Positions 15,278 to 63,006 of a stretch of 64,000 bases of DNA are shown in pieces. The notes beneath the pieces are model-generated. The model was not told the DNA's origin. It did not search any database and saw only the letters and a list, made by a program, of their open reading frames with translations. A program made the translations under genes and the position numbers. Origin of the DNA: Bacillota bacterium (lineage in GTDB: Bacteria > Bacillota > Clostridia > Lachnospirales > Lachnospiraceae); NCBI GenBank assembly GCA_029226935.1, contig JAQXYZ010000066.1:1748-65747 (forward strand), given 5' to 3'. Each line of letters opens with the position of its first letter. The stretch's first letter is position 1.

Positions 15278-15278
15278 A

Positions 15279-17793: not shown

Positions 17794-19758
<1,965 letters not shown>

Positions 19759-19780
19759 TGTCAAATAGTTAGGAGCAAAA

Positions 19781-42835: not shown

Positions 42836-42858
42836 TAAAAAATGAAAATAGGATAATT

Positions 42859-47580: not shown

Positions 47581-50500
47581 ATGAATATTATGCTTGAAGG
47601 AACTAAAACAGGTTCCACCCAAACACATACAAGTGCAGGCAGGGATACAACTATATATCGTACACCGCAGGATACAGAAAAGGTTGAAAATTGCGGTTTT
47701 GCATTAGACATTTCTGGTACAGTTATGGATAACAGCGCTTATGCAGGTCATGGACGGACCACAGAAGAGGTTATGCTGGAAGCAGGGCAGCAGGATATTA
47801 CTGCCCGGCGCAACTATATGGCAGTTATGTCTAATTCTATGTCAGATGAAGATTTTGCAAAGCTACAGAAGGAAGGATTTCATCCCGGCAGTACGGATGT
47901 TGAGACAGTTGTAACCATTGTAGATCATATAAAAGCAGCGCTTATAAAAGGCGGAAATCAGGTAACTGGTTATACAGATACCATTTCTGATGATGTGCTG
48001 AAGAACATTACCGGAAGTGAGACCTTTGCACAGGAGCTTAAGAAGCAGTTTGCACAGAAGGATATTCCTTTAACGGAAGAAAATGTAACTGCTGTAACTG
48101 ATGCATGGAATATGCTGACAGAAGTAGGTTCCATGACAGAGGGCAGCGAAAAATATATGATTGAAAATAGTCTTGCCATTACGCCTGAAAATATATATAC
48201 CTCCCGGTTTTCTGCATCCTATGACAGCAGCAGACAGGGAAAGGGCTATTATGCGGCAGGTGCAGTAGCCGGTTATTATGCCAAAAAACCGGAGGAGATT
48301 GATTTTGAAAAGCTTAAGCCGCAGATGGCAGGTGTAATCGAAGAGGCAGGATATGAAGTAAATGAGGATCGTCTTGCAGATGCAAAATGGCTGGTAGAAA
48401 AGGGAATCCCTTTAAATGTTGATACCTTTTCCCTTTTAAGTGACATTCGTAAGCAGACTTTTCCAATATCTTATCCGGATTTTGTTTCAGCTGTTACCTG
48501 TGCCATTGCTGATGGAACCGCTCCTGAAAAAGCAGATCTTACCCAGAAGCAGACCTGCATTGAACAGGCAGCAGAGCTTGTAGAGAAGCTTAGTGGAATA
48601 GAGAACAGGGCAGCAGACCTTATTATGATGAGAGAGCTTCCTCTTACCATAAAGAATTTACTGGCTATGCAGGATCAGATGAACCATGGTTCCGGTCAGG
48701 TTCTTTTGTCGGAGCAGGGGACGGAGAACACGCATGGACGCCGACTTCTGGAAGAGATCAGGCTATCTATGACGACAGAGGCAAATTTAAAGCTGTTAAA
48801 GAGCGGATATCAGATTGAAACTGCCCCTTTGGAGGAATTGGTTGCCAAATTAAAGGAGGCAGAAATCAGCTATAATAAAGCCCTGACCGGAGAGGTGGAC
48901 GCCGGAAAGGCACAGGAGAAGGCATCACTTTATCAGGAAACGCTTACGGTAATACAGGGAATCTCGTCATCTCCGGCAGCTGTTCTGGCACAAATATCAG
49001 GAGAGGATACCCTAAAAGATATCTATTCTTATGGACTTGACCGAAGTCTTATTTATGAAAAGGCAGGTCAGACTTATGAGACGATGATGACAGCTCCAAG
49101 GATGGATATGGGGGATTCCATACAAAAAGCATTTCGCAACGTGGACACAATCCTTGAGGATATGGGTGTAGCACTTTCAGAAGCTAACAGACGCGGAGTT
49201 CGAATTTTAGGATATAACAATATTGAGATTACTGAAGAAAATCTTGCAGAAATCAGGGATAAAGATGATTTGCTGATTGGTGTAATCAGGGAAATGAAGC
49301 CGGGCCGGGTTTTAAAAATGATTCGGGAAGGAGTAAACCCTTTAAATATGCCGCTGGAAGAATTGAAGCAGTATCTGGGCAATCAAACTGATATTGCCGA
49401 AGAAATAGAGTCCTATAGCAGATTCCTTTATAAGCTGGAAAATCAAAAGGATATCACAGAGGAAGAAAGAAGTGCTTATATCGGCATTTACAGGCTGGTA
49501 CGCCAAATTGAAAAGGGCGATGATGCAGCAATTGGAGCAATCTGGCAAAGCGGTGCTGAATTTACTTTGGGGAATCTTTTGAGTGCAGTAAGAAGCAGTA
49601 AGCGCGGACATATGGATTATTCCATCAATGACAGTTTTGGAGGCGTTGAATCTAAAGGCAAGGGCAGAGAAAAAATTACCGATCAGATTGCAAGAGCATT
49701 TGCCTCCGGTACTGTACCGGACAAAAAGGAAATGGAAGCGCTTGTTGAAAAAGCAGGCAATGAGACAGCCGGAGAAGAATTTGACAGGATGATTTTTGAT
49801 CAGGCACGGAGCGCGGTAAGATCAGAGGATGCGATATATCAATATCTGGAAAATTACGGGCAGACGGTAACAACAGATCATCTCTTGTCAGCAGGTATGC
49901 TTTTGAAAAATCCGAGATCAATTTGGCGTGGTTTTAAAAGCAACTTTGATGTGCAGCCAGCAGATGAGAAAGAAAATTACATTGAAAAAGCGGGTTCAGA
50001 GGTTATCAAAGCTCTGGGCAGCCGGGAAGAAGTACAAACGGCATATGAAGGTTTTAGGGAAAGACTTCAGAATATGCTTAAAGATACAGCATTTACAGGT
50101 TCAAATACCGCGGTGGACGTGAAGGCGATGAGCACCCTTTACAAACACATTTCTTTCTTAAGTTCCATGGCAAGGGAAGAAAATTATGAAATTCCTGCAA
50201 ATATCGACGGATCATTAACCTCTATTAATCTTAAGATTGTACATAGTAATCAGCAGGAAAGTAAGGTTGCCATAAGTTTTGAAACAGAAGAAATGGGAAA
50301 AACAGCGGCAGAATTTAAGCTGACGGAACAGGGGCTTACAGGATTTTGTATTTCTTCCTCTGATGAATGGACACAGAAGATGGAAGAAAGCAGAGAATTG
50401 CTTGAAGAGAAATTAAAAGAAGAGCAGATTCCCGTGGGAGAAATTTATTTTGCAACCGGCAAAAAGCTTAATCTGGAAGAATTTTCACTAAAGGAATCAA

Positions 50501-50619
50501 GTGGTCGACAGGCTCTTGGCAATTCAGGAACTCTTTACCGGGCGGCGAGAGCATTTATTGGATACATACAGGAAACAGGCTTAAAGAAAGGAAATACAGC
50601 TTATGAAAATCAGTTTTAA
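47581..50619 (+). CDS. 1012-aa soluble protein of unknown function, probably flagellum-associated
   Basis: A long ORF behind a GAGG SD, with no TM or signal peptide and a polar, disordered N-terminus. Its stop overlaps the flagellin start by 17 nt. The flagellar role is inferred from context only. Confidence 0.7.
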   Translation: MNIMLEGTKTGSTQTHTSAGRDTTIYRTPQDTEKVENCGFALDISGTVMDNSAYAGHGRTTEEVMLEAGQQDITARRNYMAVMSNSMSDEDFAKLQKEGFHPGSTDVETVVTIVDHIKAALIKGGNQVTGYTDTISDDVLKNITGSETFAQELKKQFAQKDIPLTEENVTAVTDAWNMLTEVGSMTEGSEKYMIENSLAITPENIYTSRFSASYDSSRQGKGYYAAGAVAGYYAKKPEEIDFEKLKPQMAGVIEEAGYEVNEDRLADAKWLVEKGIPLNVDTFSLLSDIRKQTFPISYPDFVSAVTCAIADGTAPEKADLTQKQTCIEQAAELVEKLSGIENRAADLIMMRELPLTIKNLLAMQDQMNHGSGQVLLSEQGTENTHGRRLLEEIRLSMTTEANLKLLKSGYQIETAPLEELVAKLKEAEISYNKALTGEVDAGKAQEKASLYQETLTVIQGISSSPAAVLAQISGEDTLKDIYSYGLDRSLIYEKAGQTYETMMTAPRMDMGDSIQKAFRNVDTILEDMGVALSEANRRGVRILGYNNIEITEENLAEIRDKDDLLIGVIREMKPGRVLKMIREGVNPLNMPLEELKQYLGNQTDIAEEIESYSRFLYKLENQKDITEEERSAYIGIYRLVRQIEKGDDAAIGAIWQSGAEFTLGNLLSAVRSSKRGHMDYSINDSFGGVESKGKGREKITDQIARAFASGTVPDKKEMEALVEKAGNETAGEEFDRMIFDQARSAVRSEDAIYQYLENYGQTVTTDHLLSAGMLLKNPRSIWRGFKSNFDVQPADEKENYIEKAGSEVIKALGSREEVQTAYEGFRERLQNMLKDTAFTGSNTAVDVKAMSTLYKHISFLSSMAREENYEIPANIDGSLTSINLKIVHSNQQESKVAISFETEEMGKTAAEFKLTEQGLTGFCISSSDEWTQKMEESRELLEEKLKEEQIPVGEIYFATGKKLNLEEFSLKESSGRQALGNSGTLYRAARAFIGYIQETGLKKGNTAYENQF

Positions 50620-51697
50620 TGCATCGGCAGTGCTTGCCAATAACTCATTAACCAGAAATGATAACAGATTACAGGATTCTTTAGCCAGACTCTCTTCCGG
50701 TCTTAAGATTGTAAATGCCAAGGATAATCCTTCCGGTCTTGCCATGTCAAAGCGAATGAACGCACAGATTGAAGGAATCAATCAGGCAACACAAAATTCC
50801 GGCGATGGAATATCCATCATTGAGATTGCTGACGGAACCTTAAGTGAAATTCACGATATTCTTCAGAGAATCAATGAACTCGCCGTAAAATCAAGTACGG
50901 GAACACTTACCGATGATGACCGGAAAATGATAAATGATGAAGCTCAGCAGTTGATGGAAGAAGTGGAACGGATGGCAAATGAGGCTGAGTTCAACGGACA
51001 AAACATTTTGGACGGTTCTTTTGATCTTAAAGGATATACAGATAAAGAAAACGTGAAACTGACCTATTGCAGTGAGAACATGAAGGCGGGAACTTATGAT
51101 TATAAGATTGATGTGACTTATAATGATGATGGTACAATTGCAAAAGCAGAAACAGCTGATGGGGAGATCAGCCATATTAATGGGAACAGCATTACTGTTA
51201 CCCGGGGTAAGGACTCCGAAGTAAAGCTTCACATTGAGCCGGAGGCAGGTCAGGCTGCAGGAACAGTACATACGGTAAACACAAGCATACAGATAGAAAA
51301 TTTTGGCGCTATGGATATGCAGATCGGAGCAAACGAAGGACAGCAGCTGTCTATTAAAATTCCTAAAATTTCTCTTGAAAATATTGGAATTTCAGGCGCA
51401 GACTTAAGCACACAGGAGGGTGCTGCAGATGTATTAAGCAAAATGGGGGATGCTGTAAAATTTATATCTTCCGTGCGAAGCCGGCTGGGTGCATATCAGA
51501 ATCGTCTGGAGCATACTATCAACAGTCTGGATATTACCAATGAAAATATGACAGCCGCCTACTCCCGTATTATGGATGTGGATATGGCAGAAGAAATGAC
51601 AGAGTACACAACCGTACAGGTATTATCACAGGCAAGTACATCCATGCTGGCACAGGCGAATGAAAGACCTGCACAGGTATTACAGCTGTTACAGTAA
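50603..51697 (+). CDS. fliC: flagellin
   Basis: N-terminal D0/D1 (LARLSSGLKIVNAKDNPSGLAMSKRM, ILQRINELAVKS) and C-terminal D1/D0 (VRSRLGAYQNRLEHTINSL, QVLSQASTSMLAQANERPAQVLQLLQ). Confidence 0.9.
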   Translation: MKISFNASAVLANNSLTRNDNRLQDSLARLSSGLKIVNAKDNPSGLAMSKRMNAQIEGINQATQNSGDGISIIEIADGTLSEIHDILQRINELAVKSSTGTLTDDDRKMINDEAQQLMEEVERMANEAEFNGQNILDGSFDLKGYTDKENVKLTYCSENMKAGTYDYKIDVTYNDDGTIAKAETADGEISHINGNSITVTRGKDSEVKLHIEPEAGQAAGTVHTVNTSIQIENFGAMDMQIGANEGQQLSIKIPKISLENIGISGADLSTQEGAADVLSKMGDAVKFISSVRSRLGAYQNRLEHTINSLDITNENMTAAYSRIMDVDMAEEMTEYTTVQVLSQASTSMLAQANERPAQVLQLLQ

Positions 51698-52208: not shown

Positions 52209-52496
52209 AGGTGCAGAATGTGTACTTTCTTCGGGCAGCAGGCTTAAGGCCGCTGCCTGTTCTAATAAAAATTTATAACGTTTCATGACAGAATTTAACT
52301 CATAAATATAACAGTCAATTAAATCAGGCTCTGTTACATTATCAAATCCTGCATATGCGACTTCTAAAGCTCTTTTTGTTTTTTCCAGATCAGACAGCAG
52401 GGCATTTCGCTCAATCTCTTTTTCTGATAAGGTTCGATTTGTGCGTGAACTTTGGCTAAAATACATTTTCATAATTTTCAGATCTTCCTTTTCCAT
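52170..52496 (-). CDS. yaaL: DUF2508 (YaaL) family protein
   Basis: Core ALEVAYAGFDNVTEPDLIDCYIYELNSVMKRYKFLLEQA. The 3' tail overlaps the end of the convergent fliS by 39 nt. Confidence 0.7.
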   Translation of the reverse strand: MEKEDLKIMKMYFSQSSRTNRTLSEKEIERNALLSDLEKTKRALEVAYAGFDNVTEPDLIDCYIYELNSVMKRYKFLLEQAAALSLLPEESTHSAPLSTETPAASLIG

Positions 52497-52638
52497 AACA
52501 GATAACCTTATTACATACTATTCACGGATTATCCAATAATTACCTTTATGCTATGAGTATAAGCAGAAAAAATCTTCTTTATTCCGTCATAAGTAAAAAA
52601 ACTGGGACATATATTGAACGGAAGAAGGGAGTGATTTT

Positions 52639-52911
52639 ATGGATACATATATGAGCATTTATATGATAGTCGGAGTTCTGGCTTTGGTGCTGTTAATTGG
52701 TGTTATGAAGAGCAGGGCAGAGTGGATCATCAATTTTTTTCTGCGTGGAATCATGGGACTCATGGTAATTTATTTCCTGAATTTTTTGCTTGCAGACTAT
52801 GTACCGGGAGTGTGTATAGGGTATAATTTCGTCACTTTTTTAACGAGTGGAATCCTTGGTTTTCCAGGGGTTGCGATGCTATATGGCATAAATTTTTATA
52901 TGCTTTTGTAA
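52639..52911 (+). CDS. bofA: pro-sigma-K processing inhibitor BofA
   Basis: 90-aa two-TM protein ending in GILGFPGVAMLYGINF. It neighbours yaaL, as in Bacillus. Confidence 0.75.
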   Translation: MDTYMSIYMIVGVLALVLLIGVMKSRAEWIINFFLRGIMGLMVIYFLNFLLADYVPGVCIGYNFVTFLTSGILGFPGVAMLYGINFYMLL

Positions 52912-52947
52912 AAAGTTAACAAAGTTGAAAAAAATAAAGTTAACTAC

Positions 52948-52976
52948 TTTACAAGTATTAAAATCTTTTTTATAAT
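52948..52976 (+). promoter_or_regulatory. sigma-A promoter for the Tad operon
   Basis: TTTACA, a 17-nt spacer, then TATAAT, about 160 nt upstream of the first Tad gene. Confidence 0.5.
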
Positions 52977-52989
52977 TCATTCTACAAAC

Positions 52990-53001
52990 AAGAACGTTCT
53001 T
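52990..53001. promoter_or_regulatory. perfect 12-bp palindrome just downstream of the Tad promoter (operator candidate)
   Basis: AAGAACGTTCTT was read directly, 14 nt after the -10 element. Confidence 0.35.
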
Positions 53002-53135
53002 CAAAATCTTTTTTGTTTGGTCGGATGGCACGGCAATGTGTCATGGATCATCTTCAGTTTCACTTGGAAGGTTTCCTTCCGGAAATCAACATTTATATTT
53101 TCAAATTTGATTGAATCATCAGAAAGGGGGATCTA

Positions 53136-54164
53136 TTGGACAAAAGAATCCTTGCGATTTTTGACAGCGAGGAGGGATATGCATATCGGCTGATGGAGTT
53201 TATGAGCGGAAAGAAAAATCTGCCTTTTGAGGTATATGTTTTTACCGATGGAGAGAAATTTTACTCCTGTGCCCAAATTACAAATATTGAATGTCTTCTC
53301 ATATCAGAAAGCGCATATAAACAGGAAGTGGAGACTCTGAAAATTCCACACATTATTATTCTAAGCGAAAGCGGAGCAAATCTAAGCAAAACATTACATC
53401 ATATCAGTAAATATCAGTCATGTGAAATGATTTTCCATCAAATAATGGAATATTATACAGACCGATCAGAAACAGTACCCATAGCCTTAAGAACAGGATT
53501 ACGGAAAATGAAAATAATAGGGATTTATACGCCTGTTGGAAGATGTCTTCAAACCACGTTTTCCCTGACGCTTGGACAGATGCTTGCGAGGCAGTTTAAA
53601 ACTTTGTATCTGAATTTTGAGGTTTATTCAGGATTTTCCAGGATGCTTTCCAGAGAATTCCGCAGTGATATTACAGATCTAATGTATTATTTTAATTCTG
53701 CCAGAGAAAAGCTGGTATGTCGGCTGGAGAGTATCGTCGAAACGGTAAGTGGGCTTGATTTTGTGCCACCGGCACAAATGATACAAAACCTGAATGGAAT
53801 CAGAGGTGCCCAGTGGCTGGATTTATTTCATGAGATAGAAAAGACCAGCGAATATGAATATCTGATACTGGATCTTACAGACGGAATTATGGATTTATGG
53901 GACGTTCTGCGGGGGTGTGATCACATTTACACTATTACCAAAGGAGATCCTCTGGCAATAGCAAAAGTGGAACAGTATGAAAAGATTCTGGAGGATATGG
54001 ATTACGGGGATATTACTGCCAAAACTACCAAATGGAGGCTTCCTGTGTTTAAGCAGCTTCCGGTCTGCTTCGAGGAACTGACTTATGGGGAGCTTGCCCG
54101 GTATATCCGCACGCAGGTTTTTCCCGAACTTTTCGGGGAGGATGCAGATGAATACAAAAGATGA
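53136..54164 (+). CDS. TadZ/CpaE-like protein: atypical receiver domain plus a ParA/MinD-like domain with a degenerate P-loop
   Basis: TTG start behind an AAAGGGGG SD. The N-terminal ~110 aa are receiver-like (ILAIFDSEEGYAY...ECLLISES). Next comes IIGIYTPVGRCLQTTFSLTLGQMLA where CpaE has SxKGGxGKTT. It lies immediately upstream of cpaF. Confidence 0.6.
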   Translation: MDKRILAIFDSEEGYAYRLMEFMSGKKNLPFEVYVFTDGEKFYSCAQITNIECLLISESAYKQEVETLKIPHIIILSESGANLSKTLHHISKYQSCEMIFHQIMEYYTDRSETVPIALRTGLRKMKIIGIYTPVGRCLQTTFSLTLGQMLARQFKTLYLNFEVYSGFSRMLSREFRSDITDLMYYFNSAREKLVCRLESIVETVSGLDFVPPAQMIQNLNGIRGAQWLDLFHEIEKTSEYEYLILDLTDGIMDLWDVLRGCDHIYTITKGDPLAIAKVEQYEKILEDMDYGDITAKTTKWRLPVFKQLPVCFEELTYGELARYIRTQVFPELFGEDADEYKR

Positions 54165-55293
54165 CAAAAACCTGCAGGAGCTGATCATAAGCAGACTGGA
54201 TCTGTCCAAACATATGAGTGCGGATGAAATACGGGAATTGATTGATGTGGAAATTCAAAAGGAGAGCAAAAAACGGCATCTGGATGTTCGCATCAGAGAA
54301 GAGATAGGAAGAGAAATTTTTCATTCTGTCAGGCAGCTGGGAATTTTACAGGAGCTGATTGAAAACCCGGAAATCACTGAGATTATGGTCAACGGTACAC
54401 AGAGTATCTTCATAGAGCAGAAAGGAAAGCTGAAACAACTGGATATATGTTTTGACTCGACCGAAAAACTTAAACATGTAATTTGGCAGATTACAGCAGG
54501 CTGCAATAGGGTGGTAAATGAAGCTTCTCCCATTGTGGATGCCAGATTGCCGGATGGCGCCAGAGTAAATGTGGTACTTGACCCTATTGCCATTAATGGT
54601 CCTATTCTGACCATCAGAAGATTCCCGCCTGACCCTATTACCATAGATCAGCTTCTTCGGATGGGTTCTTTGACGGAAGAATGTAAGGATTTGCTTGAAA
54701 AACAAGTGCAGGAAGGCTGCAATATTCTGGTAAGTGGAGGAACCGGATCAGGGAAGACTACTTTTTTAAATATTCTGTCACAATTTATACCTAAGACAGA
54801 AAGAGTTATCACGATTGAAGACAGTGCGGAGCTGCAAATCAGAAATATTCCCAATCTGGTCAGTCTTGAGACAAGAAATGCAAATGTAGAAGGCTGCAGG
54901 GAAATTACCATTCGTGATCTGATCAGGACTTCCCTGCGGATGCGGCCGGACAGGATTATCGTCGGAGAGGTACGGGGAAAGGAAGCTGTAGATATGCTCC
55001 AGAGTGTCAATGTTGGACACAGCGCCATGACGACAGTACATGCAAACAGCGTCAGAGATGTGGTCAGCCGCCTGGAGACAATGGTGCTTATGGGAATGGA
55101 AATGCCTCTTTCTGCCATACGAAAACAGATTGTATCAGGCTTTGATCTGATGGTTCATCTGGGAAGGCTCAAGGATGGAAGCAGACGGGTTTTGGAGATT
55201 GCAGAGCCTTTGGAAATTCGTGAAGGGGAGGTTATTATGCGGACCATTTACCGACTTGAGCAGAAAGGAATACCTGCAAATGAGAAAAAGTAA
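54148..55293 (+). CDS. tadA: CpaF/TadA-family secretion ATPase
   Basis: Walker A VSGGTGSGKTTFLN, Asp box ITIEDSAELQ, Walker B RPDRIIVGEVRG, and His box GHSAMTTVHAN. The start is ATG 54148, six nt after GGAGG, overlapping the upstream gene by 17 nt. Confidence 0.92.
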   Translation: MNTKDDKNLQELIISRLDLSKHMSADEIRELIDVEIQKESKKRHLDVRIREEIGREIFHSVRQLGILQELIENPEITEIMVNGTQSIFIEQKGKLKQLDICFDSTEKLKHVIWQITAGCNRVVNEASPIVDARLPDGARVNVVLDPIAINGPILTIRRFPPDPITIDQLLRMGSLTEECKDLLEKQVQEGCNILVSGGTGSGKTTFLNILSQFIPKTERVITIEDSAELQIRNIPNLVSLETRNANVEGCREITIRDLIRTSLRMRPDRIIVGEVRGKEAVDMLQSVNVGHSAMTTVHANSVRDVVSRLETMVLMGMEMPLSAIRKQIVSGFDLMVHLGRLKDGSRRVLEIAEPLEIREGEVIMRTIYRLEQKGIPANEKK

Positions 55294-56032
55294 CAGTGAA
55301 AGGATACTTCTTCCATTTACGAAAAGGGAAAGGTGGATATTGGCAGCAAAAAGCGTAATGGTGGTGCTGATATTGGATTATTTTTTTTACCAATCATGGC
55401 TGGCTGTTTTTCCTTTGGCGGCAGCAGGATTTCTTTATTGCCGGATGGAAAAGAAAATTCTCTATGAAAAGAAAAAAGATTTGGCACTGGAACAGTTTAA
55501 AGAATTAATGCTGTTAGTTTCCACCGGACAAAAAGCAGGATATTCTGCGGACAATGCTTTTCTCTCAAGCTATCAGGATATGAAGGTGCTTTACGGAAGT
55601 AGCAGCAGTGTCTGCATCATGATAGATATGTTAAAAGCGGGAAAAGAAAATCATATTCCGTTTACGGAGCTATGGAAGCAGATTGGAGAAAAAATTCATA
55701 TTGAAGAAATCAGAGAGTTTGCAGATATTTATGAAATTTCCCATAAGAGCAGCGGAAACGTTGCAGCAGTTATGGAAAAGACAGCAGAGATTATCGTCCG
55801 AAAAATTGAGACAGAGAAAGAGATTGCCGTTATGATAAGCGCCAAAAGGCTGGAACAGAAGATTATGAATATGATGCCGTTTCTGATTATGCTTTATATC
55901 AGTATAGTATATCCGGGATATTTTGAACCACTTTATCATTCCTTACCCGGCGTTTTGATAATGAGCGTCTGCCTGCTTGTCTATCTGTGCGCTTACGGGC
56001 TGTCAGTTTACATCATTTCCATCAAAATATAA
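55280..56032 (+). CDS. tadB: TadB-like T2SSF-family inner-membrane platform protein
   Basis: 250 aa with an N-terminal TM, a cytoplasmic helical domain and C-terminal TM helices. The ATG at 55280 overlaps the cpaF stop by 14 nt. Confidence 0.75.
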   Translation: MRKSNSERILLPFTKRERWILAAKSVMVVLILDYFFYQSWLAVFPLAAAGFLYCRMEKKILYEKKKDLALEQFKELMLLVSTGQKAGYSADNAFLSSYQDMKVLYGSSSSVCIMIDMLKAGKENHIPFTELWKQIGEKIHIEEIREFADIYEISHKSSGNVAAVMEKTAEIIVRKIETEKEIAVMISAKRLEQKIMNMMPFLIMLYISIVYPGYFEPLYHSLPGVLIMSVCLLVYLCAYGLSVYIISIKI

Positions 56033-56045
56033 AGAAGGAGGATCT

Positions 56046-56843
56046 ATGAAAAACCCGTTTTTTCAGTTAGCAGCATGGATATATGGAAAGCATAAGCAAA
56101 ACCGGTCAAATGGCAGAAATCAGATGATATATAAGGAATTGTCACAATTGCATCCATTTGAGGATCAGGAAAAACTTTATGAAAATTATCAGATCAAAAA
56201 AATGGCAACAGTAGTTTCTGCTTGGACTGTAGAAATAATTTATGTGATATTCTTTCACTTTTCTAATCGGTCAGAGAACAGATGGATGGAAGGGGCGTTG
56301 TTTTTACTGTTATCCGGAGTACTGATTTCAATGGCAATGGACAGTGACTTAAAAAAGAACTGCCGGAAAAGAAGCAGGCAGTTACTTATGGATTATGGGA
56401 GATTTGTTAACAGGCTAAGGCTGTATTTATCCGCCGGGCTTACCCTAAAAAATGCGTTTGTCAGAATTATGAGAGAATTAAAGAAAGAAAAGAGAGGAAA
56501 AGAGAAATGTTATCTACAGGAAGAAATGCAGATAGCATGTTATCGGTTAGAAAATGGTGTGTTAGAGGAAAAGGTTTATCAGGACTTTGGCAGACGATGT
56601 GACGAAATGCCTTACAGAAGATTATGTTTTTTGTTGGCAATGCATTTAAAGCAGGGTAATCATCAACTTTTGTTACTGCTTGAAAAAGAGGCGGACAGTG
56701 CACAGGAGGAGAGAAGAAATATGGCAAAAAAACTGGGAGAAGAGGCAGGAACCAAATTGCTCTTTCCAATGATGCTGATGCTTGGCATAGTAATGTTTTT
56801 GATACTAATCCCTGCTTATTTCAGCTTTGGGACTATTTCATAA
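56046..56843 (+). CDS. tadC: TadC-like T2SSF-family inner-membrane platform protein
   Basis: 265 aa with the same architecture as the preceding gene. ATG 56046 follows a GAAGGAGG SD. Confidence 0.7.
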   Translation: MKNPFFQLAAWIYGKHKQNRSNGRNQMIYKELSQLHPFEDQEKLYENYQIKKMATVVSAWTVEIIYVIFFHFSNRSENRWMEGALFLLLSGVLISMAMDSDLKKNCRKRSRQLLMDYGRFVNRLRLYLSAGLTLKNAFVRIMRELKKEKRGKEKCYLQEEMQIACYRLENGVLEEKVYQDFGRRCDEMPYRRLCFLLAMHLKQGNHQLLLLLEKEADSAQEERRNMAKKLGEEAGTKLLFPMMLMLGIVMFLILIPAYFSFGTIS

Positions 56844-56875
56844 GAAGAACATAAAATCGAAATGGAGGATGAAAA

Positions 56876-57061
56876 ATGAAAACAATTAAGAAAAGATTCA
56901 TGGAACAATGTAAGGATAACAGAGGTATGGGCACAGTAGAAATGATATTAATCATTGTGGTATTAATCGGTCTGGTGCTGATTTTTAAAAATCAGATCCA
57001 ACAACTGGCAGCAGTAATTTTTGACAAAATATCCGTAGACAGCGCTGCAATTTTGTCCTGA
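56876..57061 (+). CDS. flp: Flp-family type IVb/IVc pilin
   Basis: 61 aa with a basic leader MKTIKKRFMEQCKDNRG, then MGTVEMILIIVVLIGLVLIF (Glu at +5 after the Gly, then a hydrophobic helix). GGAGG SD 7 nt upstream. Confidence 0.8.
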   Translation: MKTIKKRFMEQCKDNRGMGTVEMILIIVVLIGLVLIFKNQIQQLAAVIFDKISVDSAAILS

Positions 57062-58449
57062 TGAGGGGATATTTGACAGTGTTTCTGGCGATGTCTTTAT
57101 CTGTATTGACCGGTTTTATTCTGCTGCTTGCCGGAGGCGCAATCAGAAATGAAGAAAAAGTCAGGTTGGAATGTGCTTTAGACACAGGCATGAATGCGGT
57201 ACTTTCCGAATATCATATTGGATTGTTTGAAAGATATGGACTTTTATATGTGGATGCTTCTTATTTAGGGCGTGCCCCGGCAATATCCAACGTAGAAGAA
57301 AGACTGATGTTTTATCTAAAAGAGAATACAGAAAAGACATTGGAAGGAGAGCATACGCCTTGGGGAAACCTGCATATTGAAAAGGTACAAATCCCCTGTT
57401 TTGAAACAGCAGCCGCCAACAGAGGAGCATCCATGAGAAATCAGGCAGTTTGTTATGTGGAAGATGTTGGAATGAAGGAACAGGAGAAAGAAGCCTTTTT
57501 GCATATAGAAGAGATCAGGGCGCTGGAAGATAATGATCCTATAACAGAGTGGAATGACATTATGGAACAGCTGGCAGGGATAGAACTTCCCCGGATTTTA
57601 AATGAAAAAGGAATATGGGAGGAGGTTCCCTTGTCCAATCCAGCAGATTGGGTGTTTGGGCTTATAAACAGCGATATTTTGTATCTGGCAGGAATTGAAC
57701 CGCAAAATATTAATCCGGCACATGTTTCTCTGGAAGATTATATTTCTCACAGACAGATTGAAAACATAAATTCAGATGACCAAAGGGAAAAAAATGATAC
57801 AGAGCTTTTTGCATCATATTTATTTCATCAGATGGGCTGTCTGAAAGGTGTAAGGGAAGGTTCTCTTCTTACCTGCCAATTAGAGTACCTTGTCCAAGGC
57901 AAGGATTCTGATTTGGAAAATGTGAGAGGGGTGGCAGAGAAGCTAATGCGTTGGAGATTTTCAGACAATCTTTCAAGAGCCATATCCGACGGAGATTTAA
58001 GAGCGCAGGCTATGGATGCAGCAGAAAAATTACAGGCTGTTCAACTAAAAGAAGCATTAAGGGACCCGGTTGCAGAGAGTATTTTGTATGCATGCGCTTT
58101 TCTGGAAAGTATTGGAGACATTCAGTCCCTTTACAACGGCGGCAGAGTGCCGGTGAGAAAAACGGGTCATCAGATGTCGGTGAATCAAGTATTGCATGGG
58201 AACTTCTGTGCGACAAATAGCAGTAGTGGGCTGACCTATGAACAGTATCTTGCCTGTATGCTTTTACTTACAGAAGACGACATTTTAAATTTAAGAGCAA
58301 TGGATCTAATGGAAATGGATATTCGTTATAGTGACGGAAACCATAATTTTGCCATGGATTGGTGTATAGAAAGATATGAGGCGACTGTAATCGCAAAATC
58401 AGGCTTTGGAATTAATTTGTCTTTAAGACGAAAATACGGTTATTTCTAA
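57061..58449 (+). CDS. 462-aa pilin-like or pilus-associated protein (DUF5702-like, from memory)
   Basis: The start overlaps the flp stop (TGATG). The N-terminus MRG-YLTVFLAMSLSVLTGFILLL resembles a class III signal/anchor, but Phe replaces Glu at +5. Confidence 0.6.
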   Translation: MRGYLTVFLAMSLSVLTGFILLLAGGAIRNEEKVRLECALDTGMNAVLSEYHIGLFERYGLLYVDASYLGRAPAISNVEERLMFYLKENTEKTLEGEHTPWGNLHIEKVQIPCFETAAANRGASMRNQAVCYVEDVGMKEQEKEAFLHIEEIRALEDNDPITEWNDIMEQLAGIELPRILNEKGIWEEVPLSNPADWVFGLINSDILYLAGIEPQNINPAHVSLEDYISHRQIENINSDDQREKNDTELFASYLFHQMGCLKGVREGSLLTCQLEYLVQGKDSDLENVRGVAEKLMRWRFSDNLSRAISDGDLRAQAMDAAEKLQAVQLKEALRDPVAESILYACAFLESIGDIQSLYNGGRVPVRKTGHQMSVNQVLHGNFCATNSSSGLTYEQYLACMLLLTEDDILNLRAMDLMEMDIRYSDGNHNFAMDWCIERYEATVIAKSGFGINLSLRRKYGYF

Positions 58450-58484
58450 TGGATACCGGAAGAAAGGAAAAGTGCTCTCCTTAG

Positions 58485-59360
58485 GTGAGCATAGTAACTA
58501 TTAACAAGCAAATGATAAGAATCCCTTCTCTCAAATTCTACCAAATAAAAATATTAAGGTTTATCAGGAGAGCATTTTTTCTTTCTTCCGGGAAGCTGAA
58601 AGCAGGAATGACGCTGGAAGGATGTATGGTTCTTCCGATTTTTCTTTTCTTTATGATGACGGTTATGTTGAGCATTGAAACAGTGCGGTTTCAGAGCCAT
58701 ATTCAGGAAGCATTATATCAGGCAGGAAATGAAAGAGCGTTTTCGGAATATCGAGTAAAGTATCAGGGAAAAACAAAAGTGAATTCACAGGAGCAAATAA
58801 AAGAATATCTTGAAAGTCAGCTGTATCCTTATCTTTGTGTGAAGGGAGGAAAAGAAGGTATAAGGTTTCAGGATCTATCCGTTACAGAGCAGGGAAAGAT
58901 TGAATATGTCCTAAGCTGCCGGATTAAGCCGTTCATTGAATGGCTTCCCATAGGCGATGTTGTTATGAATGACAGGTTTTTCAGTCATTCATGGATCGGT
59001 TACAGCAAAATAGAGTCGCAGGACGGTAATGTCGTGCCGGAGATTTATGTATATGTGACCCGGACAGGGAGCAGATATCATATGTCCTATGAGTGTACAC
59101 ATCTGAACGTTCAGGTACATATGGAAGAGTACGAAAATCTTTTCGGTCTGCGAAATCAGTCTGGTGGAAAATATTATGCCTGCGAGAGATGTAAACCTCT
59201 GGCAGAGGGCACAGTTTATATTACAAATGATGGAGACTGTTATCATGGTCAGGCAGATTGTTCTTCTCTTAAGAGAACGATTTGTATGATTCCATTAAGT
59301 GAGGCAGCAGGATATAGTCCCTGCAGCAAATGTGCAGGAAAGAAGGAAAGGGCTTTTTAA
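58485..59360 (+). CDS. TadE-like pseudopilin fused to two C-terminal His/Cys (HCCC) zinc-knuckle modules
   Basis: KAGMTLEGCMVLPIFLFF is a TadE-type N-terminus. The C-terminus has VYVTRTGSRYHMSYECTHL...YYACERC and VYITNDGDCYHGQADCSSL...YSPCSKC. The start is uncertain (GTG 58485, ATG 58512 or ATG 58605). Confidence 0.6.
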   Translation: MSIVTINKQMIRIPSLKFYQIKILRFIRRAFFLSSGKLKAGMTLEGCMVLPIFLFFMMTVMLSIETVRFQSHIQEALYQAGNERAFSEYRVKYQGKTKVNSQEQIKEYLESQLYPYLCVKGGKEGIRFQDLSVTEQGKIEYVLSCRIKPFIEWLPIGDVVMNDRFFSHSWIGYSKIESQDGNVVPEIYVYVTRTGSRYHMSYECTHLNVQVHMEEYENLFGLRNQSGGKYYACERCKPLAEGTVYITNDGDCYHGQADCSSLKRTICMIPLSEAAGYSPCSKCAGKKERAF

Positions 59361-59365
59361 GGGCA

Positions 59366-59782
59366 ATGAAGACTGTGGCATATTGTGGGGGACTTTTATT
59401 TTTGGCAGTACTTTCGGCAGAGGACATCAGAGAAAAGAAAATATCTGCCTGTAAAATTTTTATTTTTGCTGTTTTTGCAGTGATATACAGAGGACTTGAA
59501 TATCAGTATCCCTTTTCGGAAATAGTGTGTTGTATTCTGCCCGGAGGAATCTTGCTCTTGGTATCGTTATTGACAAAAGAGAGCATTGGATATGGGGATG
59601 GCGTAGCGGTTATGGTACTGGGATTGTGGACAGGAGCCTGGTTTACGGCAGGAGTTCTGTGTGTTGCTGTTATATTGGCAGGATTATTTGGAATAGGTTA
59701 TCTGGTAATGGGAAAGCGGGATGCGATTCCCTTTATCCCCTTTTTATTAGTCGGATTGGAGGTAATGTTATTTTATGCATAA
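59366..59782 (+). CDS. tadV: A24-family prepilin peptidase (TadV/CpaA-like, no methyltransferase domain)
   Basis: 138 aa, polytopic, with two Asp-containing motifs: LSAEDIREKKI and GYGDGVAVMVLG. Confidence 0.8.
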   Translation: MKTVAYCGGLLFLAVLSAEDIREKKISACKIFIFAVFAVIYRGLEYQYPFSEIVCCILPGGILLLVSLLTKESIGYGDGVAVMVLGLWTGAWFTAGVLCVAVILAGLFGIGYLVMGKRDAIPFIPFLLVGLEVMLFYA

Positions 59783-60206
59783 AAAATGGAAGGGTTATTT
59801 TACGATAGAGGCTACCTTTATACTTCCTATTATTCTGTTTCTTTACTTACTGATTATCTCGGCTGCTCTTTTTCTGTATTGTCGCTGTGCAATTTCTCAG
59901 AATAATTTTCTTCTTGCAATGAGAGCAGCAAGATTTACTCAGGGAGAAGATTACTATGGAGAGATTATTTATGGAAATACAAAAGATGGTTCATGGCAGG
60001 CAGAAGATTATGTAAAGGAGCGACTTACTCAAATAGAAAATCATTATCCCTTTTATCCTGCCCGGGGAGGGGAATGTAAAGTAGATGAAGGATATGCGCT
60101 GGTAGAAACAGGGCAAAGGTCATCAAAGCTTCTGATTACAAAAAAGGTGCAGAGACTTAACCCGGTAGAGATGGTCAGAAAGGGGAGAAAGGAGCAAAAT
60201 GTTTGA
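59775..60206 (+). CDS. TadE-like pseudopilin
   Basis: MHKKWKG-YFTIEATFILPIILFLYLLII: Gly, then Glu at +5, then a hydrophobic helix. It overlaps the peptidase gene by 8 nt. Confidence 0.7.
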   Translation: MHKKWKGYFTIEATFILPIILFLYLLIISAALFLYCRCAISQNNFLLAMRAARFTQGEDYYGEIIYGNTKDGSWQAEDYVKERLTQIENHYPFYPARGGECKVDEGYALVETGQRSSKLLITKKVQRLNPVEMVRKGRKEQNV

Positions 60207-61467
60207 GACAAAGTATTATAAAGATTATAGGCATAATTATTTAATTATTAAAGATAATGGATGCCTTCAGAATAATGTATATCAATGTAAGATGATAACG
60301 GAAAATAGAATCAAAGGGCTGCTTCCGTGTCAGGAAAGATATATTAACGGAGATATTCTTTTGTATTATGAGATCACTTCAAAGCAGAGTGTTTTCAGTA
60401 TTTATGAGAACAAAAGTATCGGAAGGGAACAGTTGTACATTTTTTTCGTACAGCTGAAAATAGTAAATGATATGCTTCAAAAATATTTGTTGGATGGAAA
60501 TGGAATTGTTTTACTTCCTGAGTATATTTTTCAGAATCTTGAGACAAGTGAGTATTCCTTTCTGTATTATCCGGAACCGGAGGAGGATAGTTTTTCGCAG
60601 CTTATGGAGTTCTTTATTGCAAGAGTAGATAACGAAGACATGAAGGCGGTAGAGCTTGTATATAAAATTGCTGATTTGATTCATAGTGAACAATTTGTTC
60701 TGGATGAGGTGCTAAAGTGGTTTCAGGAAGATACATACCTTTGCGTAGAGGAAGAAAAATCAGAATACCAGTTTAAAGGAGAAGAGCCCGCTCAACAGCT
60801 TCTGCCAGATAAAGAAGAACAGGAGGAAACAGAAGATGTTGGCAATAATATAAAAAGGAAAAACTACAGATTATTGCCGGTAGCAGGAGCAGGTATATTG
60901 GGCATTGTCATGTTATGTTATATTATGGTTTCTTATGAGTTATCTTATCAGGAAGAAATTTATCTAATGCTTGGACTAGCCGGATCAGGATTACTTATTG
61001 TAGGAAGTCTTATATACTTTTTTTATTCTAAATTTATGGAAAGGCTGCCAAAAGGAGAGACTTCAAAGGAGGAGAAATCAAATATTTACAGTTACAGAGA
61101 TTCTTATGAAGAGTTTGAAATGGAGTCTAAAGTGGATGCTGGCAACACAATATTTATTCCCTGGACGGAGAATTGTGAAAATAAACTTTACAGTACAAAT
61201 AAAAAATTCAGATGTCATATTGATTTAGGAAAACTTCCACTTACTGTTGGAAAGCTTGCAGGGGCTGTAGATATGGTAATTGATGAATCAAGCATTAGCC
61301 GTATGCATGCAAAATTCTCCAGAAAAGGAAATGAAATCCATATTACGGACTTAAATTCTACGAACGGAACCTTCAGAAATGGTGTCAGGCTCTCTCCAAA
61401 TGCATCAGAAATAATTGAACCGGGAGATGAAATCCGACTGGGAAAATTAAAATTTATTTACAGATAG
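60199..61467 (+). CDS. membrane protein with an N-terminal uncharacterised domain, two TM helices and a C-terminal FHA domain
   Basis: FHA signature LTVGKLAGAVDMVIDESSISRMHAKFSRKGNEIHITDLNSTNGTFRNG...GDEIRLG. TM helices LLPVAGAGILGIVMLCYIMV and LGLAGSGLLIVGSLIYFFY. It overlaps the upstream gene by 8 nt. Confidence 0.8.
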   Translation: MFETKYYKDYRHNYLIIKDNGCLQNNVYQCKMITENRIKGLLPCQERYINGDILLYYEITSKQSVFSIYENKSIGREQLYIFFVQLKIVNDMLQKYLLDGNGIVLLPEYIFQNLETSEYSFLYYPEPEEDSFSQLMEFFIARVDNEDMKAVELVYKIADLIHSEQFVLDEVLKWFQEDTYLCVEEEKSEYQFKGEEPAQQLLPDKEEQEETEDVGNNIKRKNYRLLPVAGAGILGIVMLCYIMVSYELSYQEEIYLMLGLAGSGLLIVGSLIYFFYSKFMERLPKGETSKEEKSNIYSYRDSYEEFEMESKVDAGNTIFIPWTENCENKLYSTNKKFRCHIDLGKLPLTVGKLAGAVDMVIDESSISRMHAKFSRKGNEIHITDLNSTNGTFRNGVRLSPNASEIIEPGDEIRLGKLKFIYR

Positions 61468-61518
61468 AAAAAACCGCTTTATACTGGATATAGTAGTCTA
61501 GTGAAAGGCAGTGTCAAT

Positions 61519-62526
61519 ATGAAGATAAATATTTATTATGGCGGCAGGGGTCTTATGGATGATCCTACATTATATGTAATTAATAAGATGCAGGCAGTTT
61601 TAGAGGAGCTCCATGTCACGGTAGAGAGGTTTAATTTGTATGAATTGAAGAACAGTATTACCACATTGCCCCAGACCATTAAGACTGCTGATGGCATTAT
61701 TCTTGCTTCTACTGTGGAATGGTATGGCATAGGTGGATATATGCATCAATTCTTGGATTCCTGCTGGCTGTATGGAGATAAGGAAAAGATTGCCAAAACA
61801 TATATGTGTCCGATAGTCATGTCAACTACTTACGGAGAAAGAGAAGGAAAACTGACACTTTCCGTTGCCTGGGAAATCTTAGGAGGGCTTCCATGCAGCG
61901 GCATTTGTGGTTATATTGCAGACACCTCCATTTTTGAAGGAAATGAAGATTATAATAAGATTATTGAAAAGAAAGCAGAAAATATGTACCGAACCATCAA
62001 TCAGAAGCTGGCAAGCTTACCTGCAAGTAATCAGGCAGTAAAACAGATGGTTTCCATTACGAAAAACATTGACTTAACACCTCAGGAATCCGAACAGCTA
62101 TCCCAGTATGCCTCTGATGACAGCTATGTTAAACGTCAGAAGCAGGATATACAGGAGCTTACAAGCCTTTTCAGGGATTTAATGGGAAACGCTGAAAAGG
62201 AAGATGGTAAGGAAGAGTACATTGCAGAATTTAAAGAGCATTTTGTTCCTCAGGCAGGGTTTAAGGCTGTTTATAAAATACAGATAGAAGGAAAAAGCAA
62301 AGCTCTTATTATAGAAATAAATGGTTCTGAGCATAACTATTACTATGGCAATGCAGATAATCCTGATGTCGAAATACAGATAAACAGAGAGACTATGGAT
62401 GACATTACTTTTGCAAGGATGACTTTTCAGAGAGCATTTATGGGTGGCGCTATGAAGATGAAAGGTGACTTTAAAATCCTTCGCACACTGGATCAAATAT
62501 TTGTATTTCAAGAGAGAATACTTTAA
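61519..62526 (+). CDS. flavodoxin-like-fold NAD(P)H oxidoreductase domain fused to an SCP2-like lipid-binding domain
   Basis: The N-terminus KINIYYGGRG...ADGIILASTVEWYGIGGYM is a flavodoxin_2/FMN-reductase pattern. The C-terminus FQRAFMGGAMKMKGDFKILRTLDQIF is an SCP2 pattern. Confidence 0.6.
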   Translation: MKINIYYGGRGLMDDPTLYVINKMQAVLEELHVTVERFNLYELKNSITTLPQTIKTADGIILASTVEWYGIGGYMHQFLDSCWLYGDKEKIAKTYMCPIVMSTTYGEREGKLTLSVAWEILGGLPCSGICGYIADTSIFEGNEDYNKIIEKKAENMYRTINQKLASLPASNQAVKQMVSITKNIDLTPQESEQLSQYASDDSYVKRQKQDIQELTSLFRDLMGNAEKEDGKEEYIAEFKEHFVPQAGFKAVYKIQIEGKSKALIIEINGSEHNYYYGNADNPDVEIQINRETMDDITFARMTFQRAFMGGAMKMKGDFKILRTLDQIFVFQERIL

Positions 62527-62595
62527 AATTTATGATACAAAGGAAGCACGAGAATGGTTTATTTCTTAAGGTGAATGCTTCGGAATGGAGGAAAT

Positions 62596-63006
62596 ATGAA
62601 ACAGGATAATTGTATTTTTTGTAAAATTATAGCAGGGGAAATTCCTTCTCAGACGCTTTACGAAGATGATCGGTTCAAGGTCATTCTGGATGTAGGTCCT
62701 GCCACTAAAGGTCATGCATTGATTCTCCCCAAGGAGCACTATGCAAATCTTTATGAGCTGCCGGAAGATACTGCAGCCGATGTATTTAAGCTTGCAAAAA
62801 AGATGATGACAAAAATGACAGAGAAACTGCACTGCGATGGATTTAATATTGTTCAAAACAATGGAGAAGTCGCAGGACAGACTGTATTTCATTTTCACAT
62901 GCATCTGATTCCCCGATATGAAAATGACGGAGAGATCTTGAAATACGTTGCCGGATCTCCCAGTCAGGAAGAACTGGCAGAAATCAAAAAGACTATTGCC
63001 GAATAA
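62596..63006 (+). CDS. HIT-family (Hint-like) nucleotide hydrolase
   Basis: CIFCKII and the histidine triad HFHMHLIP. ATG 62596 follows a GGAGG SD. Confidence 0.9.
   Translation: MKQDNCIFCKIIAGEIPSQTLYEDDRFKVILDVGPATKGHALILPKEHYANLYELPEDTAADVFKLAKKMMTKMTEKLHCDGFNIVQNNGEVAGQTVFHFHMHLIPRYENDGEILKYVAGSPSQEELAEIKKTIAE

Follow-up and report, generated by a model that had tools for sequence, protein, structure and literature searches.

A predicted Tad/Flp pilus operon with three uncharacterised accessory genes and a conserved RNA helix in an uncultured member of the Lachnospiraceae

A stretch of 64,000 nucleotides (nt) from contig JAQXYZ010000066.1 (assembly GCA_029226935.1, Bacillota) was analysed; the whole stretch is called the window, and coordinates are counted from its first letter. 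Between 53136 and 61467 of the window, the open reading frame (ORF) listing gives ten consecutive head-to-tail ORFs on the plus strand, all of them intact and referred to here as g1 to g10. The order of their products is TadZ, CpaF, TadB, TadC, Flp, DUF5702, TadE-HCCC, A24 peptidase, TadE-like and DUF6382-2TM-FHA, where HCCC denotes a His-Cys3 module and 2TM two transmembrane helices. The locus is very probably a functional Tad/Flp (type IVc) pilus operon fitted to a single-membrane (monoderm) envelope in an uncultured member of the Lachnospiraceae. The ten genes, with product lengths in amino acids (aa) and the matches on which each assignment is based, are as follows.

53136..54164, plus strand: g1, TadZ-like protein, 342 aa, TTG start (match to PDB 3FKQ; PF21194)
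54148..55293, plus strand: g2, CpaF/TadA-type secretion ATPase, 381 aa (PF00437 T2SSE, 2.5e-57)
55280..56032, plus strand: g3, TadB-like platform protein, 250 aa (PF00482 T2SSF, 8e-4)
56046..56843, plus strand: g4, TadC-like platform protein, 265 aa (PF00482 T2SSF, 8.8e-7)
56876..57061, plus strand: g5, Flp-type prepilin, 61 aa (PF16982 Flp1_like, 4.9e-20)
57061..58449, plus strand: g6, DUF5702 protein, 462 aa (PF18960, 2e-59)
58485..59360, plus strand: g7, TadE-like minor pilin, 291 aa (TadE matches within its family, motifs and structural model)
59366..59782 (alternative start 59330), plus strand: g8, TadV/CpaA-like A24 prepilin peptidase, about 138 aa (PF01478, 1.7e-10)
59775..60206, plus strand: g9, TadE-like minor pilin, 143 aa (PF07811 TadE, 4e-4)
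60199..61467, plus strand: g10, DUF6382 plus FHA protein, 422 aa (PF19909, 1e-47; PF00498, 5.2e-17)

Four neighbouring pairs overlap, with the ATG of g2 at 54148 and the g1 stop at 54164, the ATG of g3 at 55280 and the g2 stop at 55293, the ATG of g9 at 59775 and the g8 stop at 59782, and the ATG of g10 at 60199 and the g9 stop at 60206. At the g5/g6 junction, the sequence TGATG (57059-57063) holds both the g5 stop and the g6 start. The spacer between g6 and g7 is occupied, with one arm of a conserved RNA helix inside it. Reading of the junctions found a purine-rich Shine-Dalgarno sequence 5' of every chosen start from g1 to g10, including a strong one, AAGAAGGAGG, ahead of the g4 ATG at 56046. 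The initial annotation of this DNA had described a complete ten-gene head-to-tail operon with overlapping genes, and this was confirmed at every junction that it listed.

Family assignments were made with Pfam and NCBIfam profile scans and a PDB sequence search, and the scores were compared with the curated cut-offs. The g1 product matches PDB 3FKQ, the TadZ of Eubacterium rectale, at an E value (E) of 8.5e-11 over 278 residues (residues 6-283), which takes in both domains, an atypical receiver domain and a ParA/MinD-like domain with a degenerate P-loop. The sequence at the Walker A position, YTPxGRCLQTTFS, is kept from locus to locus; the degenerate segment is YTPVGRCLQTTFS (window 53500-53560, residues ~125-145), as compared with SPCGGVGTSTVA in E. 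rectale TadZ. Because this segment is degenerate, ATP binding by g1 is doubtful, and nucleotide binding may be absent. The g2 ATPase has the Walker A motif GGTGSGKTT, and its top NCBIfam match is TIGR03819 (TadA family ATPase, 5.4e-88), with 295 bits, below the equivalog cut-off of 373 bits. The platform protein g4 matches T2SSF with 29.4 bits, above the cut-off of 25.2. A hidden Markov model (HMM) of g4 cross-matches the g3 homologues, the g3/g4 pair is kept in all loci compared, and so is the placement of g3 between cpaF and tadC.

The pilin g5 matches Flp1_like (PF16982) with 71.2 bits against a cut-off of 33.5. It has a predicted 17-residue leader with cleavage at RG/MGTVEM, which would leave a mature pilin of 44 aa with Glu at +5 and Met, not Tyr, at +6. 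The mature N-terminus, MGTVEMILIIVVLIGLVLIFK, is nearly invariant among 46 species. The peptidase g8 matches Peptidase_A24 (PF01478) with 41.7 bits against a cut-off of 26.5, and both predicted catalytic Asp contexts (AEDIREK and GYGDG) are present. The N-termini of homologues make ATG 59366 a likelier start than 59330, and with only 138-150 aa the protein has no methyltransferase domain. The minor pilin g9 carries the cleavage motif KWKG/YFTIE, with Glu at +5, and this motif is conserved in all loci. In the aligned homologues, class III signal motifs with Glu at +5 are found in three proteins, namely Flp, g7 and g9.

The core assignments to T2SSE, T2SSF, Flp, A24 and TadZ hold by the profile and PDB searches. 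The core first read from the sequence (TadZ, CpaF, TadB, TadC, Flp, A24 and TadE-like genes) is thereby borne out, and the profile HMM check proposed for T2SSE, T2SSF, Flp and A24 membership was run without refuting it. Secretin, RcpB, RcpC and TadD had no Pfam match among the ten products or the scanned flanks, in agreement with the earlier remark that secretin, TadD and RcpB are missing. The absence of the RcpA secretin, RcpB, RcpC and TadD is expected in monoderms (PMC6916266).

As a separate observation on TadC, the protein in most related loci (among L001-L046, where L numbers denote individual loci) has ~280 extra N-terminal residues, giving products of 402-474 aa with a weak aBig_2 Ig-like match. 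This stretch is absent in the window, in L043 and in the Anaerobutyricum-like loci L027-L034.

The conservation of the operon was followed in related genomes by a scan seeded with the DUF5702 alignment, after which the window proteins were compared by BLAST with the ORFs of the loci found. In 46 genome loci, all ten genes are present in identical order and strand wherever the contig allows, with protein identities of 25-93% and intact ORFs, and most of these loci share the flanking genes of the window. Nearly all are labelled Lachnospiraceae or unclassified gut Firmicutes (Parablautia, Anaerobutyricum, CAG:95, CAG:534 and many metagenome-assembled genomes). Four contigs with distant g7 representatives (L047-L050; ~30-40% identity) keep the operon order as TadZ, CpaF, TadB, TadC, Flp1_like, DUF5702, g7, A24, a small ORF and DUF6382; in L048 and L049 this order is kept within unrelated flanks. 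A further 80 metagenome loci were obtained by a scan with the g7 alignment, and the order, checked with HMMs built from the Lachnospiraceae set, was recovered in essentially every locus with enough sequence. The synteny check suggested at the outset thus found the uncharacterised genes together with cpaF, order kept, in 46 genome, 4 distant and 80 metagenome loci. This ten-gene synteny indicates that the uncharacterised genes are integral to the unit and not passengers.

The exceptions to synteny are cut contigs or loci broken by mobile elements, and the latter bear on whether the operon might be an inactive relic. In L044 (11400-15500) an IS21-like element lies within the g7 homologue and g6 is split, and in three metagenome loci (L077, L117 and L129, 1-8400) g1-g4 have been lost through mobile-element insertions, with transposase or integrase genes in their place. 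A relic is nevertheless extremely improbable for the window, where the ten ORFs are intact, have Shine-Dalgarno sequences and stop/start overlaps, and encode conserved catalytic and motif residues; over 120 loci in all preserve both the gene order and the frames. A second, different Tad-like cluster was also observed in L048 (12845-20670), directly after the ten-gene unit; it encodes a small DUF6133 protein, an A24 peptidase, an RcpC/SAF protein, a T2SSE ATPase and a DUF4320 protein.

About half of the genes had initially been held to be uncharacterised; this number comes down to three of the ten, namely g6, g7 for its C-terminal half, and g10. The first of these, g6, has the N-terminus M-[KR]-G-Y-L-T-V-F in the aligned homologues, with an invariant Gly3 and no Glu at +5. 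An AlphaFold2 model built from 65 homologues (predicted local distance difference test, pLDDT, 88.5; predicted template modelling score, pTM, 0.83) shows an unbroken 47-residue helix (residues 2-48) and, after it, a globular domain that is mainly helical and has beta hairpins closing it. A long N-terminal helix is a hallmark of type IV pilins. The label of g6 as pilin-like is taken from this predicted helix and the invariant Gly3; these features agree with the early description of g6 as a 462-aa pilin-like protein, whereas the missing Glu at +5 and the lack of a TadE or TadG profile match do not.

Foldseek gave no structural neighbour of the g6 model in the PDB (best E 0.64, template modelling score at most 0.12) or in BFVD (best E 0.26), and a PDB profile search with the DUF5702 alignment gave no match. 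In a Pfam scan all 65 DUF5702 family members match DUF5702 alone, and g6 has no TadE, TadG or vWA profile match. Identity with TadG was considered and rejected, as residues 1-70 and 1-193 have no PF13400 or vWA match at E<=10. By analogy, the large size of g6 and its missing Glu at +5 suggest a tip subunit, or else a membrane-anchored TadG-like accessory, that might give the fibre its binding specificity.

The start of g7 is most likely GTG 58485, which matches the ATG of its closest relative in L024 and is followed by a ~40-residue leader; the in-arm ATG of other species corresponds in the window to GTG 58472, which is out of frame for g7. The cleavage motif is KA/GMTLE in the window and KG/SMALE in most species, with Glu at +5. 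The window protein itself has no Pfam or NCBIfam match at E<=0.1 except a chance one to DUF1307. Since half of the family (31 of 61 sampled members, best E 4e-6) matches TadE (PF07811), the N-terminal part is taken as a TadE-like minor pilin. Searching 1.84 billion cluster representatives, the g7 family was found to comprise 2,246 representatives at 50% identity with E<=1e-3, and 1,800 with E<=1e-10; most are full-length.

The C-terminal half of g7 contains two tandem HCCC modules, HX4CX28CX2C and HX4CX20CX2C. Counted from the alternative start Met at 58512, the invariant residues are E36, H190, C195, C224, C227, H245, C250, C271 and C274, so that the Cys/His pseudopilin noticed at first reading stands as a TadE-like protein with two invariant His-Cys3 modules. 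The pattern of one His and three Cys per module argues for binding of a metal, probably zinc, rather than disulfide bonds. The HCCC modules probably bind metal, and we infer that they are extracellular metal-stabilised binding domains. In the AlphaFold2 model of g7 (pLDDT 86.9), a disordered leader is followed by a 53-residue alpha1 helix (33-85), a four-stranded sheet (117-159) and two small beta modules. Foldseek of this model against the PDB and BFVD returned nothing significant.

The modules raise another possibility for the operon, in which it would encode a DNA-uptake (competence) pseudopilus like that of the Micrococcus luteus Flp/Tad system, and the g7 Cys/His modules would bind DNA at the tip. 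In M. luteus natural transformation is driven by Tad/Flp (PMC4322843; PMC6916266). The g7 motif xEAxxxGxxPCxxC also resembles the C-terminal zinc ligands of Ada, and the zinc- and DNA-binding Ada domain (PF02805) gave weak Pfam matches in five of the 61 family members (best E 0.0024; 0.076 for the window protein). As a homologue of the g7 modules, the Ada-type zinc domain was however rejected, since hhalign gave 12% probability over 14 columns and a PDB profile search returned spurious repeat-protein matches and no Ada entry. No comEA, comEC or comFA-type genes are found in the operon or scanned flanks, and the neighbours are flagellar and housekeeping genes, so a role in competence is unlikely.

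Searches for the HCCC module on plasmids gave no match. Its presence in phages was rejected as well, as three 'Bacteriophage sp.' matches proved to be bacterial contigs with the same ten-gene operon. The records concerned, L131-L133 (GenBank MT835706, MT835518 and MT835924, labelled 'UNVERIFIED: Bacteriophage sp.', from human faeces), are bacterial-looking contigs with a complete ten-gene operon.

The region around the g7 start forms an inverted repeat with 26-nt arms that are 92% complementary and 84 nt apart. It was noticed through an Rfam match to mir-3660 on both strands at 58456-58591, which is spurious at 33 bits against a gathering score of 70; no genuine Rfam 15 family matches this segment. 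The two arms are as follows.

58456..58481, plus strand: left arm of the helix, CCGGAAGAAAGGAAAAGTGCTCTCCT; it holds the g7 Shine-Dalgarno region and ends 4 nt before GTG 58485
58566..58591, plus strand: right arm of the helix, AGGAGAGCATTTTTTCTTTCTTCCGG; it is located within g7, where it codes for RRAFFLSSG of the leader

The RNA fold of 58440-58610 has a free energy of -54.8 kcal/mol compared with -32.8 for shuffles (z -6.56). The helix is present in all 42 of the other genome loci examined. RNAalifold on the aligned genome loci gave 25 pairs, 20 of them with compensatory changes on both sides. With the structure held fixed, 96.6% of the cells are paired, versus 59-68% when the partner is slid by 1-3 columns, and across 500 shuffles not one of the five covariation measures is attained. 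The helix is found again in distant metagenome loci, where its sequence is unrelated; examples are the pairs GAAAGGAGGTGGGAACGATGTTTCTGCC/GGCAGAGACATCGTTCCCGCCTTCTTTT and AAGGAGGTGAAGGCAGATGCCCTTCCGGC/GCCGGGAGGGCATCTGCCTTCACCTCCTT. In these helices the left arm contains a GGAGG-type Shine-Dalgarno sequence and, mostly, the g7 ATG, with the partner 50-140 nt downstream. An uninterrupted stem of at least 12 bp was found in 55 of 75 distinct distant loci versus 16 of 750 shuffles, and 37 of the 55 stem-bearing loci have an in-frame start codon in or just after the left arm. The covariation statistics are drawn from related sequences; that shared ancestry alone has produced the signal is made less likely by the slid-partner control and by the reappearance of the helix with unrelated sequence.

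Invertible switches of gut bacteria typically have inverted repeats of 20-30 bp on either side of a short segment. The 26-bp repeat could accordingly mark the ends of an invertible DNA segment giving phase variation of g7, and covariation between the arms is also expected from such a switch. The mismatch cells, however, are strand-asymmetric, with 97 G-U versus 20 A-C among the non-Watson-Crick cells, which assigns the constraint to the sense RNA rather than to duplex DNA. The loop motif ATCCCTTCTCTCAA never changes its orientation, either among the 43 aligned loci or among the metagenome loci that carry it; no recombinase gene is linked to the locus, and the helix of distant loci always includes the ribosome-binding site. 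An invertible segment is therefore very improbable as the explanation of the repeat. The same loop motif (58521-58534), which encodes IPSLK in the g7 leader, is nucleotide-invariant in 43 Lachnospiraceae loci, third codon positions included, and no pairing partner for it beyond chance was found elsewhere in the window.

These data suggest that the RNA helix is a translational lock on g7, a substrate for RNase III, or both. As the leader codons host the right arm, the helix would explain the unusually long and variable leaders of the g7 family.

The last gene, g10, encodes DUF6382, an acidic linker, two transmembrane helices and an FHA domain, in keeping with its early description as an FHA membrane protein (PF00498, 5.2e-17). 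It is the final gene of the cluster in nearly all loci. Both domains are predicted to lie in the cytoplasm, as the protein has two transmembrane helices and lacks a signal peptide, and homologues without the transmembrane hairpin agree with this placement. In the FHA domain Ser367-x-x-His370, Asn389 and Lys352 (after Gly) are invariant. A PDB profile search with the full g10 alignment found nothing besides the FHA domain. It is proposed that g10 is a cytoplasmic adaptor, perhaps phospho-dependent, which may cooperate with TadZ.

DUF6382-FHA proteins have been reported as TseJ and TsfJ, components of the type VII secretion system (T7SS) variants T7SSe and T7SSf (PMC11217815), and no other report of DUF6382 was found in the literature. 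A TadZ-like receiver domain occurs in a protein of T7SSf as well, and T7SSg and T7SSh loci always adjoin Tad genes (PMC11217815). FHA proteins are numerous in the Myxococcus Kil system, a Tad-like machine (PMC8460266). On these grounds the locus could be thought to encode a contact-dependent effector or secretion device switched by phosphorylation, Kil-like or a T7SS hybrid, with DUF6382-FHA as its trigger. This is very unlikely, for no EssC/FtsK-type ATPase, WXG100, YukD-like, LXG or toxin-immunity genes occur among the ten products or in the scanned flanks, and neither an EssC-type ATPase nor WXG100 is among the called genes of L047-L050. A complete pilus set is encoded instead, its Flp pilin is highly conserved, and in L048 and L049 the DUF6382 protein lacks FHA in an operon that is otherwise identical.

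The reading as a Tad/Flp pilus takes gene families, order and conservation as observed, and its mechanistic steps are inferred from established Tad biology. In Tad systems the peptidase matures Flp and the minor pilins, CpaF powers assembly on TadB/TadC, TadZ positions the machine, and minor pilins prime and cap the fibre; a monoderm needs no outer-membrane parts. In the window, the 61-aa Flp prepilin would be cleaved after Gly17 by the A24 aspartyl peptidase g8 of the operon. The 44-aa mature pilin would then be pulled from the membrane and polymerised on TadB/TadC (g3 and g4), with the CpaF hexamer (g2) as driver, and the TadZ-like g1, with its degenerate P-loop, would dock or position the machine. 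Three proteins with pilin-type N-termini, g9, g7 and g6, would prime and cap the fibre. The largest of them, g6, might sit at the tip or act as a membrane-anchored TadG-like accessory, and would be the source of binding specificity. The g10 protein would serve as a membrane-tethered cytoplasmic scaffold through which the motor is coupled to a partner protein or to Ser/Thr phosphorylation; DUF6382 is the constant part of g10, and most relatives, though not every one, have the FHA domain as well.

For the RNA element, a helix of 25-26 bp would pair g7 codons 28-36, in the leader, with the ribosome-binding site of the gene and, for most species, also with its start codon. Initiation on g7 would then be restricted to nascent RNA on which the right arm has yet to be made, or alternatively RNase III would cut the long perfect duplex. 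By either route, the helix would keep minor-pilin output low relative to Flp, as a post-transcriptional limit on g7 and possibly also on the genes after it.

Several observations weigh against parts of this reading. Three core assignments stay below their curated cut-offs, namely g1 for TadZ-like_ARD (PF21194; 26.5 bits, cut-off 27.4), g3 for T2SSF (19.8 bits, cut-off 25.2) and g9 for TadE (20.9 bits, cut-off 22.9), and g1 has no canonical Walker A motif. The g6 leader has merely three residues and is not followed by Glu at +5, so that g6 could be a bitopic membrane protein instead of a fibre subunit. Metal binding by the HCCC modules is proposed from the residue pattern only. In the g10 FHA domain, Lys352 stands where the phosphothreonine-contacting Arg normally sits, and the DUF6382 genes of L048 and L049 have no FHA domain; the phospho-dependence of g10 is therefore uncertain. 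As to the helix, the g7 start codon of the window lies 4 nt outside it, in L002, L018 and L023 the in-frame g7 start lies in the helix loop, and the helix may act mainly on mRNA stability and not on translation.

A further proposal goes beyond the pilus operon as such and is more tentative, being given rather less than an even chance. In it, the locus would represent a distinct and widespread clostridial Tad subtype, in which DUF5702, the metal-binding TadE-HCCC and DUF6382(-FHA) proteins are obligatory and stoichiometry is set by an undescribed class of cis-RNA. DUF5702 would then be a tip or accessory protein with a previously unseen fold, and DUF6382(-FHA) a cytoplasmic adaptor that Tad pili share with type VII secretion systems. 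If the proposal is true, an RNA lock on the minor-pilin ribosome-binding site, formed by leader-peptide codons, would account for the long variable leaders.

A candidate site for transcription initiation was found in the 224-nt spacer between bofA and g1.

52948..52976, plus strand: candidate sigma-70-type promoter (TTTACA, 17 nt spacer, TATAAT), 11/12 consensus matches

This is the top-scoring promoter-like site within 52400-62600. The scan as a whole showed no enrichment over shuffles; the site is a putative promoter, which may drive the entire ten-gene operon. No Rfam 15 match to a riboswitch or structured leader was found 5' of g1, where the fold z-score is merely -1.5, and the 5' leader of the operon likewise gave no Rfam 15 match to a cyclic dimeric guanosine monophosphate (c-di-GMP) riboswitch-type element, which is known 5' of clostridial pilus genes. 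The same Rfam 15 scan gave a weak match to the sR5 small nucleolar RNA at 50910-50955.

The guanine-cytosine (GC) content and GC skew show no break between the operon and the chromosome around it. The operon is preceded in turn by a 1012-aa DUF6240/FliK-like gene, flagellin, fliS, DUF2508 (encoded on the opposite strand) and bofA, and is followed by SCP2, HIT and fumarase genes, which confirms the initial placement of the locus beside flagellin and bofA in housekeeping surroundings. The 1012-aa DUF6240 protein (47581-50619) has a FliK-like C-terminus, and its gene overlaps the start of the flagellin gene (50603-51697) by 17 nt. The DUF6240/flagellin pair and fliS lie upstream of the Tad operon in most Lachnospiraceae loci, and not in L048 and L049. 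Further upstream, 42826-45555 encodes a 909-aa protein whose sole match is a weak one to Sigma54_activ_2 (4e-6) at residues 693-782. The chromosomal origin region is at 6962-22351 of the window, with gidA, mnmE and yidC on the minus strand, dnaA, dnaN, recF, gyrB and gyrA on the plus strand, and the strand switch near 12.4-13.7 kb. As the genes from gidA to gyrA are in the same window, the operon can be placed ~40 kb from the replication origin and co-oriented with replication.

Lachnospiraceae are dominant butyrate-producing commensals of the gut, and their attachment to mucus, to fibre and to each other is largely unexplained. Tad pili are proven colonisation factors in Bifidobacterium, and a link to immune stimulation has been reported for pilus proteins from gut Clostridia that are uncultured (PMC11680825). 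The present analysis defines a ten-gene unit kept in well over a hundred loci, by which three 'hypothetical' genes become testable pilus components. The covariation-supported RNA element could explain how minor-pilin dosage is set. In Firmicutes, Tad pili and type VII secretion might follow one control logic, as their common DUF6382-FHA module hints.

Compared with known systems, the core of the locus is ordinary, since tad operons are already documented in Clostridia, including Lachnospiraceae. In survey passages, clostridial tad operons with 'Flp-like' pilins lacking Tyr at +6 are catalogued, among them those of Eubacterium ventriosum and Ruminococcus gnavus (PMC3244431; PMC6668835). Accessory ORFs are not defined in these surveys (Imam et al., 2011; Denise et al., 2019), and neither the DUF5702/TadE-HCCC/DUF6382 trio nor the RNA helix is described in the passages concerned (PMC3244431; PMC6668835). 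In the literature searched, no description was found of a fixed DUF5702/TadE-HCCC/DUF6382(-FHA) trio, of the size of the TadE-HCCC family or of the start-sequestering helix. The ten-gene system, first put forward as a candidate for a poorly described one, is under-studied rather than unrecognised.

The Tad system of Bifidobacterium breve UCC2003 (tadZ-tadA-tadB-tadC-flp-tadE-tadF, with tadV elsewhere) is likewise a monoderm type IVc system without secretin, RcpB/RcpC or TadD (PMC6916266). Its core order matches that of the window, with TadZ, the ATPase, two platform paralogues, a small Flp and TadE-like minor pilins (PMC6916266). Unlike in B. breve, the peptidase gene of the window lies inside the operon, Flp is of the Flp1_like type (PF16982) with Met for Tyr at +6, and the TadE-like g7 has two HCCC modules and a ~40-residue leader. 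The window also adds the DUF5702 and DUF6382-FHA genes and the mRNA helix over the g7 start. With the tad locus of Aggregatibacter actinomycetemcomitans and the cpa locus of Caulobacter crescentus it has in common CpaF/TadA, TadB/TadC, Flp, TadV/CpaA, TadZ/CpaE and TadE/TadF-type pilins. Unlike these two, it has no RcpA/CpaC secretin, RcpB, RcpC/CpaB, TadD or recognisable TadG, and, unlike in the textbook Tad systems, its CpaF is short (381 aa) and its TadZ P-loop is degenerate.

The domain pair of g10, an N-terminal DUF6382 and a C-terminal FHA, is identical to that of TseJ and TsfJ, and TsfJ also has two transmembrane helices (PMC11217815). TseJ and TsfJ lie at T7SS loci, whereas g10 is the last cistron of a Tad operon with no T7SS genes nearby, and, unlike this pair, some g10 relatives have no FHA domain or no transmembrane hairpin. 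The g6 protein can be set beside the GspK-type tip pseudopilins of type II secretion in that it, too, is the largest protein with a pilin-type helix in its operon and has no Glu at +5. No sequence or fold similarity of g6 to GspK, TadG or CpaL was detected, and the analogy is positional only. In the maturation gene of phage MS2, the ribosome-binding site is hidden by long-range pairing, and translation occurs on nascent RNA only. Like this pairing and like intercistronic stems processed by RNase III, the g7 helix is a long duplex over the Shine-Dalgarno sequence and AUG with a distant partner. Unlike MS2-type pairings, it finds its partner 50-140 nt downstream, within the leader codons of the same gene, and it is tied to one gene family of a pilus operon.

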